Virus record (IMG/VR): IMGVR_UViG_3300031825_000041
Coordinates: 1 to 39,909 of that record
DNA from: a virus
DNA length: 39,909 nucleotides
Reading direction: 5' to 3' (one strand)
The position numbers and the translations under genes were made by a program. The notes beneath the pieces are model-generated. The model was not told the origin of the DNA, did no database searches, and saw only the letters and a program-made list of their open reading frames with translations. Positions 212 to 34,569 of this stretch are shown piece by piece. Every line of letters starts with the position of its first letter. The stretch's first letter is position 1.

Positions 212-688
212 CTAACGTTTAAGTGATATAAAGCTTGGTTTATTGTTTTTAAGCATAAATTTAAGAATTGTAGATATCTGTTCTTTAGTTTCCGGAAAAT
301 ACTGCACAACATTTGGGCAAGTACCAAGCAGCATAGCGGCATCAGTAGCATCATGAGAATGGCCATCGTGGGTGTAATCTTTATTCCTTCCGCTGCCTAC
401 TAATTTAACAGGTACTCCTTCTACATCTAAATAAAGTTTTATTGTTTCGTAAGGTCGTCTTAAAAGAAATGGTGTAATTGAGTAAACGAATGGAACCTTG
501 CCTTTAAGAGCAAGTCCTACAGCAATACCCATCATAGCTTGCTCAGAAGCCCCACAATTGACGAAACGATCAGGAAAGTCTTTCTGTATCTGATCCCACA
601 TCATGTACCCTAAATCTCCTGTAAGAAGCCATACGTTAGGATTTTCTTTCATTATTAAATAAAGCTCATTAGCAAATGTTCTTCTCAT
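212..688 (-). CDS. Transketolase-like ThDP enzyme, C-terminal (pyrimidine-binding) subunit, 158 aa
   Basis: Motifs FVNCGASEQAMMGIAVGLALKGKVPFVYSITPFLL are typical of the transketolase/DXS Pyr domain. Its start overlaps the stop of the N-terminal subunit gene (685-688). Confidence 0.75.
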   Translation of the reverse strand: MRRTFANELYLIMKENPNVWLLTGDLGYMMWDQIQKDFPDRFVNCGASEQAMMGIAVGLALKGKVPFVYSITPFLLRRPYETIKLYLDVEGVPVKLVGSGRNKDYTHDGHSHDATDAAMLLGTCPNVVQYFPETKEQISTILKFMLKNNKPSFISLKR

Positions 689-9309: not shown

Positions 9310-9349
9310 AGGATAAGTCCTGTATTTCCTATCCTAAAAGCCCTAAATA
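9310..9349 (-). promoter_or_regulatory. Conserved leader (shared with 28725-28765) ending at the portal ATG
   Basis: 41 of 51 positions are identical in an ungapped hand alignment with the leader of gene 28056-28724. Hairpin AGGATA/TATCCT here versus AGGTTA/TAACCT there (a compensatory change). Confidence 0.6.
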
Positions 9350-9380
9350 CCAAAAAAGCACCACGCCTATTGGCTGGTGC
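9350..9380 (-). terminator. Intrinsic terminator (cassette a)
   Basis: Minus strand GCACCAGCC-AATA-GGCGTGGTGC followed by TTTTTTGG. Same bulged-G architecture as 2209-2240. Confidence 0.75.
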
Positions 9381-9413
9381 CGTAATCCGCATTAGATCGG
9401 TATTAGCAAACTC

Positions 9414-12491: not shown

Positions 12492-12593
12492 ATCTCCCTT
12501 TCTGGTGAGTCTGATAAGTGACTCTTAGGGTACAACTTTGGAAAGCTTTCGGGTCATAGAGAAAGATCTCTGCGGCTCGTGTACCCCTAAAAA

Positions 12594-12719
12594 TCAACCA
12601 AGCCATCTTACTTGATATTTACCGCATTTCTCACAATACCTATCCTGAAGACCATTGCCTTCACTATTATTCCTAGGCTTACTCCATTTACCCCATTTAT
12701 GAAAAATCCAAATACACAT
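12594..12719 (-). CDS. Small Zn-ribbon-like ORF, 41 aa (not in ORF track)
   Basis: Manual translation: MCIWIFHKWGKWSKPRNNSEGNGLQDRYCEKCGKYQVRWLG. The C..H ... CxxC pattern is common in small phage proteins. Confidence 0.45.
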   Translation of the reverse strand: MCIWIFHKWGKWSKPRNNSEGNGLQDRYCEKCGKYQVRWLG

Positions 12720-12736
12720 ATATTTATTCAATCCTC

Positions 12737-17530: not shown

Positions 17531-17543
17531 ACTTTCTCTTTCT

Positions 17544-17586
17544 GCGTGGTATTAAGTCCCGATTTAATCGGGATAAGCTGCCACGC
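17544..17586. promoter_or_regulatory. Nested hairpin containing palindrome TCCCGAT-nnn-ATCGGGA (copy 2 of 2)
   Basis: Outer stem gcgtgg/ccacgc and inner stem tcccgat-tta-atcggga (17557-17573), just upstream of the methyltransferase start. Confidence 0.5.
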
Positions 17587-17588
17587 CT

Positions 17589-17672
17589 CTATTTCAACCT
17601 CATAACTACCCAAAGTAATCCCAACAACATCGCTAGAGCTAGTAAATATAATAAATTTTGTTGGTTTAGCAT
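17589..17672 (-). CDS. Small hydrophobic peptide, 27 aa (not in ORF track)
   Basis: Manual translation: MLNQQNLLYLLALAMLLGLLWVVMRLK. Confidence 0.35.
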   Translation of the reverse strand: MLNQQNLLYLLALAMLLGLLWVVMRLK

Positions 17673-17673
17673 A

Positions 17674-17826: not shown

Positions 17827-17859
17827 ATTTGTAAATATTATCGTCTATATGTCTATATA

Positions 17860-18158
17860 AAACTATATCACTGTTCTTGCGGCTACGCCGCCTCTACCCA
17901 TAACTTTGCTCTATTCCCTCTGCCTAGATCTTCTCTCCGGTAGGTTCCTAGTCCTCCCTCTGGTATGGTTGTTACTTAATACCAGATAAGTGTTTCTATT
18001 CACCGTCTGAGTGAGTCTGAGTAGAGAGCCGACTAGTCCATTTTTATTCGCAAACTATTACTAGAAAATGGCGGTTGCCGTATCTGCTATCCAAAGTAAT
18101 CTCTTACTTCTATCCGCCCGCCACTTTGCGAGTAACGAGCGAGTAGAAGAACGCAAAG
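17860..18158 (-). ncRNA. Candidate structured RNA or replication-origin-like region (unclassified)
   Basis: About 300 nt with stops in every frame of the strand I translated. Helices: ACTTTGCG/CGCAAAGT, AAGTAA-GAGA-TTACTT (GNRA loop), CTGGTAT/ATACCAG, GCGGC-GTA-GCCGC. Direct repeats: GTCTGAGT x2 and CAGAGGGA x2. Confidence 0.35.
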
Positions 18159-18443
18159 TTATGTCAAAGAACTAAAACCTAACTGTTCAGGCTTAACTAA
18201 TACTTGTCTACTTACCCATTCGCCACGCTCATTTTTATATGTTTTCCATGTCATCTCTTGTTTTTGTGGTTGACGGGTGGTGATAAGATAACCTTTTTCT
18301 TTAAGCTCTTTGACTCGTACTGGAAGCTGGATATATTTCATTCTCCATTGATAAGAGTTCATTCCTCTAACACCCGATCCTTTAAGGACTTGTAATATTT
18401 CTGATTGCTGTTTATTTAATTTCATATATTCCTTTCTACCCAC
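18159..18443 (-). CDS. Putative winged-helix DNA-binding protein, 94 aa
   Basis: The segment SEILQVLKGSGVRGMNSYQWRMKYIQLPVRVKELKEKGYLITT resembles a wHTH. Weak call. Confidence 0.4.
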   Translation of the reverse strand: MGRKEYMKLNKQQSEILQVLKGSGVRGMNSYQWRMKYIQLPVRVKELKEKGYLITTRQPQKQEMTWKTYKNERGEWVSRQVLVKPEQLGFSSLT

Positions 18444-18862
18444 TTTATGAGTCTCGCTTTAGTATTGAAAACAAAGTATTGACTTCCGGTTGATTTCGAA
18501 GCACTTAATTCATAACCATTTTCTCTTTTAGTGATATTGATGATTAAATACAGTTCTTTTGGTTTAACTTTCTTCACAGGCTCTTTAGGTATTACGAACT
18601 TGACGTTATCCATATTCCATGACTCACCGTCATATGGTTGTTTACGGGGCTTGGTGACCTTTTTAGAGGGTTTAAGAAGTTCTAGTTCAGATAAATTATA
18701 GACACTATGTTTTTCTCCTGCACTACCTGTTAAAGTTGCCCAACCATCTTTAGTGATTGTTTTTATTTTCCCAATCGAACCGATGGAGTCGCAATGGTTA
18801 CCATAAATACAATCAATAATTTTTACTCTGTCGCCTATTTTAAATTTATATTCTTTTTTCAT
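18422..18862 (-). CDS. Hypothetical protein, 146 aa
   Basis: ORF track; the N-terminus looks like a small beta-barrel (KIGDRVKII). Confidence 0.6.
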   Translation of the reverse strand: MKKEYKFKIGDRVKIIDCIYGNHCDSIGSIGKIKTITKDGWATLTGSAGEKHSVYNLSELELLKPSKKVTKPRKQPYDGESWNMDNVKFVIPKEPVKKVKPKELYLIINITKRENGYELSASKSTGSQYFVFNTKARLIKWVERNI

Positions 18863-18901: not shown

Positions 18902-19408
18902 TCATTTTAATAATTTCAATTTATTTATTCTTCTAGTCATCCATAAATCGATTTTTTTAATGGCGGCACTCTCGGCACTCCAGGCGGCACTCTGATGCGC
19001 TTCACAAGGACACTTTTTATATGCTATCGCTGCTTCGATTGCTTTTCTTGGTCGATCATCGTTTGGGTATACATCTTCAAAATTTTTAAGAACTAATTTA
19101 GCGCAGTAGATAGCCAAATCAACACTATCTCCTTTTTGCCATTTATATGCTTTAACTATTCTCATTTCTGAGTAAGCTTCTTTATCATTCTGAATATCAG
19201 ATGCGCCTTTACATTCAACAACGGCCAAGATTTCTCCTTGAATATATGAAAATGCTTGGTAAACTTTTTTGGAGCAATGGAAACCTCTTTCACATAACTT
19301 AACAACTCCTTTTGTCTTTTTCCATTCTCCAATTGTCCAAGCCTCATTACCTGAGTCAGATTTAATTTTTCCGTTTATTTCTCTTAAAAATTTATATCTA
19401 GTTATCAT
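18902..19408 (-). CDS. Hypothetical protein, 168 aa
   Basis: ORF track; the nested ORF 19162-19347 is judged spurious. Confidence 0.65.
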   Translation of the reverse strand: MITRYKFLREINGKIKSDSGNEAWTIGEWKKTKGVVKLCERGFHCSKKVYQAFSYIQGEILAVVECKGASDIQNDKEAYSEMRIVKAYKWQKGDSVDLAIYCAKLVLKNFEDVYPNDDRPRKAIEAAIAYKKCPCEAHQSAAWSAESAAIKKIDLWMTRRINKLKLLK

Positions 19409-19673
19409 AATTCTCTTTCTTAAAAGCTAGGCATTTTATTATTAAGGACTTCATGTCCACCTAGCCTTTAACCAGTGCTACTGCCTTTGAGCCAAATTCT
19501 TGCCTATTATTGACTCAAAGTAGTCGGAGTCATACTTCCAGTATTGCGTTTACTGGGTATTTAGGCTTCGCATGGGTGTTTTGCACCCTCTTCGGTCAGC
19601 CAGCCGCAAGCACATACCCGACTACTCTCAATCAACAATTTAAAGTTCTCTCCTGATCAATTAATAAAACCCT
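19409..19673 (-). ncRNA. Candidate structured non-coding RNA (unclassified), minus strand
   Basis: 265-nt ORF-free gap with at least 6 helices. These include a 12-bp long-range helix (19617-19628 with 19517-19528) and an 11-bp terminal helix (19460-19470 with 19421-19431). Their non-Watson-Crick positions are G-U only when read on the minus strand. Confidence 0.45.
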
Positions 19674-20105
19674 CTAATAATCACTAAATTCCGGTTCATC
19701 ATTTATCTGTCTTTCTGGAATAGCTGGTGTCTGTATTGGCTGTGGCCATTCTTTATATTGGCACCCATATGATTGCTTTGTCTGAAAATTATATTTATTG
19801 TTTTCGCATTTAATAGGTGCTTTGCTTCCTACTGCTGGCTTAATAAGTCTTCCTCCATCCGTAGGGCATGTGCGACCTTCAATATATTCAACTGGTGCAG
19901 ATGGTTTTTTACCAAAGCTATTTTGAGCTAAAGGTGTAAATCCGCTTTCAAGCCAATTTTTTTCCATAGCCTTCATCTTAAACATAAGTGTACTTGCCTT
20001 TTCATCTCGCATAGTGAACAGCCATTCAAATCCGTCTTTACTTTTAATTTTTACTGTTGCACTTGCTGGTGCTTCTGGTAATACATTTTTTTGTTCGTTT
20101 TCCAT
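19674..20105 (-). CDS. Hypothetical protein, 143 aa, acidic C-terminal tail
   Basis: ORF track; ends in NDEPEFSDY. No confident family assignment. Confidence 0.6.
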   Translation of the reverse strand: MENEQKNVLPEAPASATVKIKSKDGFEWLFTMRDEKASTLMFKMKAMEKNWLESGFTPLAQNSFGKKPSAPVEYIEGRTCPTDGGRLIKPAVGSKAPIKCENNKYNFQTKQSYGCQYKEWPQPIQTPAIPERQINDEPEFSDY

Positions 20106-21863: not shown

Positions 21864-22829
21864 GTGAATGAGTTAACAAACTTCAAGTTATATATTATAA
21901 GATCGGGGAGAAAAAAGCGAACGGCAGAACTGCACGTTTCACTGTTATCCCGCCTCTTTAAAGCGTCAAAAAATCTAAATCTAGACCAGATTAATAATTT
22001 TCTTCTAAGCCTAATTGAGTCGGGGAGGAAGGCAACTTACGTCAATGATTACATCGACACACTAAGAGTTTACGGCAGGTTTATCAAAGATGACAGGTTC
22101 AATTCGTTAGAATATTTTAAAGAAGATATTTTTATCCAGGCGACCATGTCTGATGCGGAGATTGAGGCTTTTCTCTCCCTGCCCCCGCCGACTAACGGTG
22201 AGAGAGTAAAGAATAATTACGCAGTTTGGACATTATTTTTTAAAATCTTAGCTTATTCGGGAATGCGGCCAGGAGAAGTCGCCCACCTAGCAATCGACAG
22301 AGTAGATTTCGGCCGCCAGGTCTTTGTTTTAGAAGATACGAAGACTAACACCCCCCGCTACGTTCCCATCGCTCCTGCGCTTCTTAGTGACCTCACAGAT
22401 CATATTAAAACCCTAACTGGCGATAAGCTATTTCCCTCTACCAGAGGGGGAAAGTTTAGGCAAAACGGAGTAGTTAATGATGTAGACTGGGGATATAACT
22501 TCCACTCAAGAATTAAACGATTGGGGATTAAAAGAAAAAACCTCCGCCCCTACTCTCTAAGGCCTTCATTTATTACTAGAATGTTAGACGAGGATGTGAA
22601 TATTTTTAAAGTTCAGAAGATTGTCGGCCATAGACAAATCTCAACCACTGCCCACTATACCCACCTAACGACTAAAGATATAACCAGAGCTATAAATAAA
22701 GACCCTTTATCAAGAGCAAGCCTGCCCTATTACGAGAGGTTAAAATTATTCCGGGAAGGGACACGTAAATTACTTGAGGATTTAGCGCAATCCCCCGAAG
22801 AAGAAAAAGAAATGCTTAATAGTCTTTAA
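21864..22829 (+). CDS. int: Tyrosine recombinase / phage integrase
   Basis: SGMRPGEV (Arg), LRPYSLRPSF (box II-like xxLR) and VGHRQISTTAHYTH (His ... Tyr nucleophile); 321 aa, GTG start. Confidence 0.85.
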   Translation: MNELTNFKLYIIRSGRKKRTAELHVSLLSRLFKASKNLNLDQINNFLLSLIESGRKATYVNDYIDTLRVYGRFIKDDRFNSLEYFKEDIFIQATMSDAEIEAFLSLPPPTNGERVKNNYAVWTLFFKILAYSGMRPGEVAHLAIDRVDFGRQVFVLEDTKTNTPRYVPIAPALLSDLTDHIKTLTGDKLFPSTRGGKFRQNGVVNDVDWGYNFHSRIKRLGIKRKNLRPYSLRPSFITRMLDEDVNIFKVQKIVGHRQISTTAHYTHLTTKDITRAINKDPLSRASLPYYERLKLFREGTRKLLEDLAQSPEEEKEMLNSL

Positions 22830-28724: not shown

Positions 28725-28765
28725 AGGTTAAGTAATAAATTTCCTAACCTATAGACCCTAAATAC
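28725..28765 (-). promoter_or_regulatory. Conserved leader (shared with 9310-9349)
   Basis: GTATTTAGGGTCTATAGGTTAGGAAATTTATTACTTAACCTATG; see 9310-9349. Confidence 0.6.
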
Positions 28766-28795
28766 AAAAAAAGCGCACTCCCCTAAAGGATGCGC
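28766..28795 (-). terminator. Intrinsic terminator (cassette b)
   Basis: Minus strand GCGCATCC-TTTAG-GGGAGTGCGC followed by TTTTTTTG. Confidence 0.7.
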
Positions 28796-33846: not shown

Positions 33847-33856
33847 ATGATATAAT
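33827..33856 (+). promoter_or_regulatory. Near-consensus plus-strand promoter TTGACT-18-TGaTATAAT driving a leaderless transcript
   Basis: TTGACT at 33827-33832 and extended -10 TGATATAAT at 33848-33856. The GTG start codon at 33863 is 6 nt after the -10, and there is no SD. Confidence 0.6.
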
Positions 33857-33862
33857 CTCCTT

Positions 33863-34348
33863 GTGAATAAACTTATAGGCTTTATTGGCCTAATCGTTTT
33901 TATCTCTTTAAGTTATTTCTTTGTTAATTTAAGTCTTCCGCCAAAGGCTGTTAGTGTTGTGCCGACACCTACTCCAAAAGAAAATAGATACGATCCATTA
34001 CCTAAACCTCTCTCTGCTGAAAAACTTACGGCACTCGTCAATAAATGGCGAGTCTCGCAAGGCTTTCAACCGTACGTAAAAAATGAAGATTTATGTCAAA
34101 TTGCTATTGATAGATCAGATGAAGGAGCCGATAACCATAAAGGATTTTTAGAAAAATACTCTAATTTCCCCTCAGTAATCCAAGAAAATTTAGTGCAAGC
34201 TAGTAACGAATATTCTGCTTTATCCTCATGGTTAAATTCAAAACCACATCTCGCAACACTTGAAAAACCATATAAATATTCCTGTATAGCTTGTTATAAA
34301 AACCAATGTAATCAGATTTTTTCCAATCTCGAAAACGGAACACGATAA
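33863..34348 (+). CDS. Secreted CAP/SCP (YkwD-like) domain protein
   Basis: N-terminal signal or TM segment LIGFIGLIVFISLSYFF. CAP-like blocks LVNKWRVSQGFQPY, ENLVQASNEYSALSSWLNSKPHLATLEKPYKYSCIA. Confidence 0.6.
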   Translation: MNKLIGFIGLIVFISLSYFFVNLSLPPKAVSVVPTPTPKENRYDPLPKPLSAEKLTALVNKWRVSQGFQPYVKNEDLCQIAIDRSDEGADNHKGFLEKYSNFPSVIQENLVQASNEYSALSSWLNSKPHLATLEKPYKYSCIACYKNQCNQIFSNLENGTR

Positions 34349-34360
34349 ATTATTAAAGAG

Positions 34361-34411
34361 CTAGCACATTCCTGTGCCACCGCATTTAGGACATTTCTTT
34401 TTCTTAGCCAT
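34361..34411 (-). CDS. Tiny ORF, 16 aa, with a CxxCxGxG motif (not in ORF track)
   Basis: AAAGGAGAAATAT precedes the ATG; translation MAKKKKCPKCGGTGMC. Confidence 0.3.
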   Translation of the reverse strand: MAKKKKCPKCGGTGMC

Positions 34412-34438
34412 ATATTTCTCCTTTCATTTTTTTCACAC

Positions 34439-34498
34439 AAAAAAAGCCGTCCTTAGAACGACTTTCTAGAACCTAGAAAATTATTCTAAAAACGGCTT
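34439..34498 (-). terminator. Long imperfect hairpin terminator (cassette d)
   Basis: Minus strand AAGCCGT ... TTAGAA ... TTCTAA ... ACGGCTT followed by TTTTTTGTG. Confidence 0.65.
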
Positions 34499-34540
34499 AC
34501 CTGACAACCTCGTGTTGGCTCAGCCAAATAGATTAACTCA

Positions 34541-34569
34541 CTTGTATCACTTTTTTTCTTATTTGTCAA
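34541..34569 (-). promoter_or_regulatory. Candidate promoter TTGACA-17-TGaTACAAG (cassette d)
   Basis: TTGACA (34569-34564) overlaps the last codons of the HNH gene. The -10 is weaker (TACAAG) but is preceded by TG. Confidence 0.35.

Follow-up and report, generated by a model that had tools for sequence, protein, structure and literature searches.

The sib retroregulator of phage lambda and the REP-type 3' stabilizers are hairpins located downstream of the gene that they affect, and they act on mRNA decay from the 3' side. The sib element overlaps a terminator and the att site, while REP elements are repeated across the genome. In phage early transcripts, HK022 put and lambda nut are cis-acting hairpins positioned upstream of terminators; put consists of two short stem-loops of defined sequence, and nut of boxA together with a 15-nt boxB. 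The idealized substrate of Escherichia coli RNase III is a 22-bp helix, equal to two A-helical turns, and mismatches at the target site lead to single-strand cuts that leave stabilizing 3' hairpins (PMC3867540). The early mRNA of phage T7 carries five intercistronic RNase III signals, cleavage of which leaves a stabilizing 3' hairpin (PMC3867540). RNase III of Bacillus subtilis cleaves duplexes closed by interactions more than 100 nt apart, and at cuts in both B. subtilis and E. coli the flanking positions are usually paired, more than 90% of them at −2/+2 (PMC11780869). Finally, the origins of c2-type (Ceduovirus) lactococcal phages are transcribed and non-coding, work without phage proteins, and differ in sequence between related phages (PMC7150918).

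The locus studied here lies in a 39,909-nt stretch of viral DNA (IMG/VR record IMGVR_UViG_3300031825_000041; below, the window), the genome of a temperate tailed phage with a GC content of about 37%. Almost all genes are on the minus strand, while an integrase gene (21864-22829) is on the plus strand; further genes encode a CHAP endolysin, the large terminase, the major head protein, a NinG-like protein, and a DNA methyltransferase. At positions 19409-19673, a gap separates two minus-strand genes (19674-20105 upstream and 18902-19408 downstream), whose products of 143 and 168 aa have no known function. A BLAST search of GenBank phages with the gap, and with 20 kb around it, found no record resembling the window. 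A preliminary description of this DNA had called the gap free of open reading frames (ORFs); it does contain ORFs, all of them short (on the antisense strand, one of 48 aa that begins with TTG; on the sense strand, three of 25, 21, and 20 aa), and none is kept in the homologous gap of a related locus, L004. A small protein was rejected for this reason. A decayed protein gene, which the same description had named among the findings that would overturn its proposal, was rejected as well: a tblastn comparison of 294 ORFs from related loci against the gap gave nothing above 18 bits. Nor is the gap a lone exception to the tight gene packing noted there, since other large gaps exist, for example at 17827-18158 (332 nt) and 12492-12736 (245 nt). 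The latter contains no convincing minus-strand gene, and the same is true of 33847-34558 (712 nt; z, −4.0), which has a 161-aa plus-strand ORF at 33863-34348.

The minus strand of the whole gap folds with a minimum free energy (MFE) of −80.4 kcal/mol (z, −3.64), compared with −59.6 kcal/mol (z, −2.41) for the plus strand. For a 134-nt core, the corresponding values are −53.6 kcal/mol (z, −6.46), with identical MFE and centroid structures, and −39.9 kcal/mol (z, −3.64); the GC content of this core is 46%, against 37% for the window. The core is closed by a long basal helix, P1, formed on the minus strand by a 5' strand at 19618-19639 (AUUGUUGAUU-G-AGAGUAGUCGG) and a 3' strand at 19506-19527 (CCGACUACUUU-G-AGUCAAUAAU). 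The two strands constitute inverted repeat I1, are paired in both the MFE and the centroid fold, and covary in the alignment described below (A8). P1 has 22 positions, 18 of them Watson-Crick pairs, three G·U pairs, and one central G·G, in which G19629 stands unpaired opposite G19516, and its layout in the window is 10 bp, a 1×1 mismatch, and 11 bp. No complementarity beyond chance was found between the element and the rest of the window, and the element is present in a single copy in the genome.

These results bear on several claims of the preliminary description. All of the helices that it listed were located in the sequence where it had placed them, and its 12-bp long-range helix is present, although this is only part of the real 22-nt inverted repeat (19506-19527/19618-19639). 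It had also assigned the RNA to the minus strand on the grounds that non-Watson-Crick positions in the long helices are G·U pairs there. This was borne out: the full P1 contains three G·U pairs and one G·G, the terminal helix (see below) contains one G·U, G·U pairs are frequent, and for each of the five related hairpins the sense strand gave the better fold (sense/antisense MFE of −53.6/−39.9 kcal/mol in the window and −38.7/−21.6, −29.3/−25.2, −26.4/−16.1, and −28.2/−26.6 kcal/mol in the other four). The combination of six helices into one RNA did not survive, because only the two long helices are significant, the short interior helices are at chance level, and one of the six, CTTTGAG/CTCAAAG, excludes P1.

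Twelve related loci were compared. Plain blastn and nhmmer searches of related loci with the gap, methods proposed in the earlier work, missed the homologues, but copies of P1 were recognized by eye and with regular expressions from short colinear anchors. In L004, the diverged copy reads TTGATTGA..GTCGRGTATG, then T.TGAGTCAATAA, then GCTAGGTGGA. The same basal helix also occurs in L006 and L017, and P1 is thus present in the window and three relatives. In all four phages, a lower stem of 6 to 10 bp and an upper stem of about 11 bp enclose an invariant G·G mismatch, with 10 + 1 + 11 positions in the window and L004 and 6 + 1 + 11 in L006 and L017. The center itself is invariant in four of four phages, comprising U·G, U-A, G·G, and A-U, that is, 5'-UUGA-3' opposite 5'-UGAG-3'. 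Alignment A8 of these four phages contains 21 pairs with 86.9% of cells paired. Covariation, a check that had been suggested beforehand, was evident for 13 of the 21 pairs (18 cells), which changed on both sides in this ungapped alignment of four sequences only, whose register was set by hand and anchored on the invariant blocks. Not one of 500 shuffles reached any of five measures, and sliding the partner strand by 1 to 3 columns left 0 to 2 pairs changing on both sides. The covariation analysis was also run as a three-sequence version, together with RNAalifold on the window and L004.

The hairpin is significantly stable wherever it was found, with z values of −6.46 (window), −3.70 (L004), −4.46 (L006), and −4.63 (L017); in a fifth locus, L002, an analogous hairpin (z, −5.69) consists of 10 bp and about 10 bp separated by an A bulge. 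It is absent from L003, L005, L007, L009, L013, and L018, about half of the relatives examined, and it must therefore be dispensable. Wider searches added little. Looking up the exact proteins retrieved an identical contig (L001) and nothing else; in IMG/VR, neither the two flanking proteins nor two anchor patterns led to anything useful, and a profile scan detected three distant loci, all lacking the gap. A scan of JGI metagenomes with an anchor pattern yielded two matches, both attributable to chance and located in GC-rich coding sequence. Neither of two GTDB scans, one for the 143-aa family and one for a GroES adjoining a related prophage, found anything. The comparison also uncovered a separate shared segment, as the 3' parts of the gaps of L002 (3607-3683) and L017 (1158-1229) are 85% identical over 74 nt and contain a hairpin whose loop is CUGAAG and, between it and the next gene, (A)UCRAUAGAUAGUUUUGGAUAU. 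Hairpins with CAUGAA(G/C) loops are located at the equivalent place in the window, L003, and L018.

Where it is present, the hairpin either overlaps the stop codon of the 143-aa gene or follows it directly. The stop codon lies within the 5' strand of the P1 lower stem, at alignment columns 6 to 8, in L004 (UGA) and L017 (UAG), and the swap from UGA to UAG is compensated on the opposite strand; in the window and L006, the stop codon precedes P1 by 33 nt and about 11 nt, respectively. Because the 5' strand of P1 holds the stop in L004 and L017, the element is part of the mRNA of the upstream gene and not a separate gene. In the window, an in-frame UGA at 19632-19634 occupies the same columns of P1 as the L004 and L017 stops, with the real stop 14 codons upstream. 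The AT-rich spacer between this UAG stop and P1 (19640-19673, minus strand) includes a degenerate partial copy of the P1 5' strand (UUAAUUGAUCAGGAGAG) and has no counterpart in L004 and L017. The 42 nt separating the UAG stop from the in-frame UGA hold this degenerate copy, and the sequence suggests that a small duplication moved the window stop codon upstream.

The 143-aa protein itself (19674-20105, minus strand) has a zinc-ribbon-like CxxD..C..C region and an acidic-aromatic C-terminal tail (alignment A3). It belongs to a family of 39 homologous clusters (P0001-P0039), nearly all from metagenome assemblies, and no match was found in Pfam, PHROG, or the PDB; an AlphaFold model was confident (pLDDT, 87), and a fold search with it produced no match. 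Across the family, a conserved EAPAS..GFEWLFT.RD N-domain precedes the Cys-rich zinc-ribbon-like region, and the acidic tail ends in an aromatic residue (..PERQ..D[YF]), reminiscent of the tails of SSB proteins.

The constant association of the element with this gene, and the two-fold symmetry of its invariant center (UGA opposite UGA around the G·G, with covarying flanking pairs), are features expected of an operator. The RNA-binding protein concerned would be sequence-specific and probably a dimer, and the 143-aa zinc-ribbon protein is one candidate. The same features would also suit a translation-coupled switch, in which ribosomes terminating in the lower stem would open P1 and the freed 3' strand would pair with a downstream segment, altering expression of the next genes. 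The stop at columns 6 to 8 in L004 and L017, with its compensated swap, is consistent with such a switch, and a candidate alternative helix exists: the segment at 19485-19495 (minus strand), UUGGCUCAAAG, is complementary to CUUUGAGUCAA at 19510-19520 in the P1 3' strand (inverted repeat I4). The reported CTTTGAG/CTCAAAG helix thereby extends to 11 bp (CUUUGAGUCAA/UUGGCUCAAAG), and since it occupies the 3' strand of P1, the two are mutually exclusive. A similar 7-bp alternative helix with a U-rich tail is seen in L006. However, the window helix is marginal when folded without the P1 5' strand (z, −1.89), the other alternatives are likewise not significant (z, −0.97 and −1.35), and P1 is far stabler than every one of them. 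Furthermore, the stop lies outside P1 in the window and L006, and no RNA-binding fold is detectable in the 143-aa protein. We consider an operator or switch of this kind rather unlikely, though the symmetric center and the tie to the stop codon make it stronger than the other rival readings. In a bolder version, a specific protein, possibly the zinc-ribbon protein encoded next door, would recognize the G·G-centered helix and its invariant symmetric UGA/UGA core as a new RNA motif of phages. Translation termination on the 143-aa gene would thereby be coupled to what happens to the early or replication genes further downstream, with the 90-nt junction as a functional add-on; this we regard as unlikely.

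The apical insert enclosed by P1 (19528-19617, minus strand) is predicted to form a helix extension and a three-way junction with GGGUG/CACCC, CCAGUA/UACUGG, and GGCU..CG/CG.AGCC. Folded without P1, the 91-nt interior has an MFE of −23.8 kcal/mol (z, −0.84), and 40 of 200 shuffles are equally good, which places the GGGTG/CACCC, CCAGTA/TACTGG, and GCTT-CG/CGAAGC helices of the preliminary description within chance. The interior measures about 90 nt in the window, about 78 nt in L004, 26 nt in L006, and about 15 nt in L017, and its fold differs in each. The apical insert is unconserved and has no significant structure by itself.

These observations speak to the reading of the gap as a free-standing phage non-coding RNA (ncRNA), as originally proposed, here taken as a transcript of about 135 to 260 nt that would start at its own promoter, end at the UUUU hairpin, and have P1 as the closing stem of a functional three-way junction. 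The well-defined core fold, in which MFE and centroid agree (z, −6.46), the elevated GC content of the core (46% versus 37% for the window), and the UUUU at the end of the terminal hairpin favor this proposal. Such an RNA would also be new, as Rfam 15, with its riboswitch, ribozyme, 6S, tmRNA, RNase P, Y RNA-like, and phage RNA families, gave no match to the window at the gathering score, only noise for 19300-19800 at an E value of ≤10, and none for the homologous gaps of eight loci at an E value of ≤0.1; ARAGORN found no tRNA or tmRNA. The failure of the earlier work to match the region to a known class was in this respect confirmed. Against the proposal, the interior is at chance level and unconserved, and it is reduced to a short loop in L006 and L017. 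Consensus scans, which are weak evidence, detected no promoter-like site upstream of P1. In addition, the stem holds the upstream stop in L004 and L017, leaving no room for a promoter outside coding sequence, and the UUUU hairpin is not kept as a terminator. The discrete six-helix transcript of 200 to 260 nt is thus reduced to a conserved basal helix around an interior that shrinks from about 90 to about 15 nt, and neither a conserved promoter nor a U-tract terminator, as would be expected of a separate RNA gene or small RNA, was detected; an independent ncRNA of this kind is improbable. Nor does the locus have the properties of a riboswitch, because the junction is unconserved and at chance level, and the downstream gene differs between phages.

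The second significant hairpin lies at 19420-19471 on the minus strand, ahead of the downstream gene. Its stem, UUAAAGGCUAGG/CCUAGCUUUUAA (inverted repeat I3), was previously given as an 11-bp helix followed by UUUU; it is present and significant (53 nt; MFE, −19.7 kcal/mol; z, −5.50), with arms that are actually 12 nt (19420-19431 with 19460-19471). The loop is 28 nt and contains a small GGAC/GUCC stem, and the UUUU ends the hairpin about 12 nt ahead of the AUG of the DUF7666 gene. The hairpin is non-canonical, though terminator-like. It was not called by a terminator scan, and its 28-nt loop and four U residues differ from the genuine terminators of the same genome, which have short loops and seven or more U residues. 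Canonical terminators of the window are at approximately 2222-2260, 9330-9385, and 28750-28795. In L004, GCUAGG/CCUAGC of the terminal hairpin is kept around an insert of about 95 nt without a U tract, and neither L004 nor L006 retains the UUUU hairpin as a terminator.

The order of elements in the gap, a structured RNA, then a terminator-like hairpin with A- and U-rich flanks, then immediately the next gene, resembles that of antitermination modules, and the gap could accordingly be read as an attenuator or terminator between early gene classes, either a terminator or a put- or nut-like antiterminator RNA with a terminator; P1 and the terminal UUUU hairpin would then both have RNA polymerase as their target. 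This is very unlikely, given that no U tract follows P1 in any of the four phages, that the terminal hairpin departs in loop and U tract from the real terminators of this genome and is not kept as one in L004 or L006, and that no known antiterminator RNA family was matched in Rfam. A comparable arrangement was observed at 17531-17673 of the window, where a hairpin, GCGUGG..CCCGAUUAAAUCGGG..CCACGC, is followed directly by AGAAAGAGAAAGU and the AUG of the methyltransferase gene; a layout of hairpin, AGAAAGAGAA, and AUG is common to this site and the end of the studied gap. This hairpin-AGAAAGAGAA-AUG arrangement may be a recurring 5' stabilizer or the start of a message.

The gene that follows is not linked to the element. 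In the window, it encodes the 168-aa DUF7666 and Imm5-like protein (18902-19408, minus strand), in L002 a Lin1244_N replication gene takes this place, and in L004 the gap continues directly into a homologue of window 18422-18862, which indicates that the DUF7666 gene is an insertion. Its context suggests an accessory, moron-like gene that was inserted immediately behind the CCUAGC arm of the terminal hairpin.

The position of the gap just upstream of the Lin1244_N (DnaD-like) replication gene in L002 and L004 raised the question of a replication origin or priming site, either a transcribed, structured non-coding origin or a single-strand priming hairpin, as in lactococcal c2-type phages. In line with this, no recognizable replication protein was found in the window phage, and origins of the c2 type contain no ORFs, are located between promoters, and are dissimilar from one origin type to the next (PMC7150918). 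On the other hand, there were no direct repeats or iterons in 19300-19800, no AT-rich unwinding block adjoins P1, no change in GC skew was seen at the gap, and the strand-specific G·U pairing and the tie to the upstream stop point to mRNA. Moreover, the larger non-coding region at 17827-18158 is at least as good a candidate. We therefore think an origin in the gap quite improbable.

The region at 17827-18158 (minus strand) is ORF-free, 332 nt long, and downstream of an HTH_39 gene, with a GC content of 43% and an MFE of −88.4 (z, −2.7). Its middle has tandem ACTCA/GACTCA repeats, and its 3' part, a GGCGGCGUAGCCGC hairpin followed by the AT-rich block GTGATATAGTTTTATATAGAC, is common to L017 (1524-1762) and L007 (3963-4175). 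This region could be an origin or another RNA element. Separately, L007 contains a tRNA gene at 545-634 (minus strand; Rfam, 62.5 bits), about 300 nt from the integrase gene of the related prophage, and this tRNA gene is probably the attachment site of this phage group.

The element is a real, conserved hairpin of the sense-strand RNA, new as a motif yet familiar in kind, and it resembles a commonplace signal for mRNA processing or stability rather than a new complex ncRNA. By analogy with described systems, our preferred reading, held tentatively and at somewhat less than an even chance, is an intercistronic double-stranded RNA (dsRNA) element of the early mRNA, probably a processing site of the RNase III type or a 3'-stabilizing site. 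We arrived at the RNase III-type description because P1 spans about two helical turns around a central irregularity, is intercistronic in an early operon, can do without its apex, and shows none of the features of a terminator. Its length agrees with that of RNase III substrates (about 20 to 22 bp, or two A-form turns), and the invariant central G·G mismatch may mark a cut site. The base pairs tolerated in the proximal and distal boxes of a substrate are specific to each RNase III enzyme. A conserved basal helix around a variable interior also matches the B. subtilis duplexes that are closed over more than 100 nt. In the proposed mechanism, host RNase III, or a similar factor specific for dsRNA, would recognize the 22-position helix and cleave it at the central irregularity or close to it. 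The early message upstream would thereby be released from the genes downstream, with a hairpin that protects it at its new 3' terminus; the apical part, including the 90-nt three-way junction of the window phage, would be a tolerated expansion with no function of its own. Both RNase III as the reader of the helix and processing or stabilization as the outcome are inferred by analogy. The lower stem of just 6 bp in L006 and L017, the absence of the hairpin from about half of the relatives, and the usual pairing of positions around RNase III cuts argue against this reading, and the central G·G with its invariant flanks (UUGA/UGAG) could equally mark the site of a sequence-specific protein.

If the RNase III-type reading holds, the hairpin would be an intercistronic RNA signal, supported by covariation, in an uncultivated group of temperate phages, and it would mark the boundary between the early operon and a variable replication or accessory module. 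It would then be useful for annotating such phages and as a small substrate for RNase III or protein-binding work. The locus also illustrates that a striking single-sequence fold can rest on one long helix while the multi-helix interior is neither conserved nor significant. No long-standing question is opened by the hairpin.

When set beside the systems outlined above, the gap resembles the c2-type origins in being ORF-free, structured, located in the early region, and unrelated in sequence between related phages (PMC7150918). These origins lie between divergent promoters and replicate plasmids; the studied element is instead linked to a stop codon and shows the covariation of one helix. Both put and nut are unlike a 22-bp G·G-centered helix. 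The studied hairpin is like sib and REP in that it is downstream of the putatively affected gene, and it differs from REP elements in being single copy. P1 shares with the B. subtilis long-range RNase III duplexes strands that are about 100 nt apart and enclose unrelated sequence (PMC11780869). Unlike P1, those duplexes are mostly fully paired at the cut, and conservation at the 3' ends of genes is not known for them. The R0.3 to R1.3 sites of T7, like P1, are irregular hairpins of about two turns between early cistrons, with a central irregularity and no U tract. The internal loop of the T7 sites is larger and asymmetric and their apical loop is short, whereas P1, which shows no sequence similarity to them, has a 1×1 G·G center and an apex of up to 90 nt.
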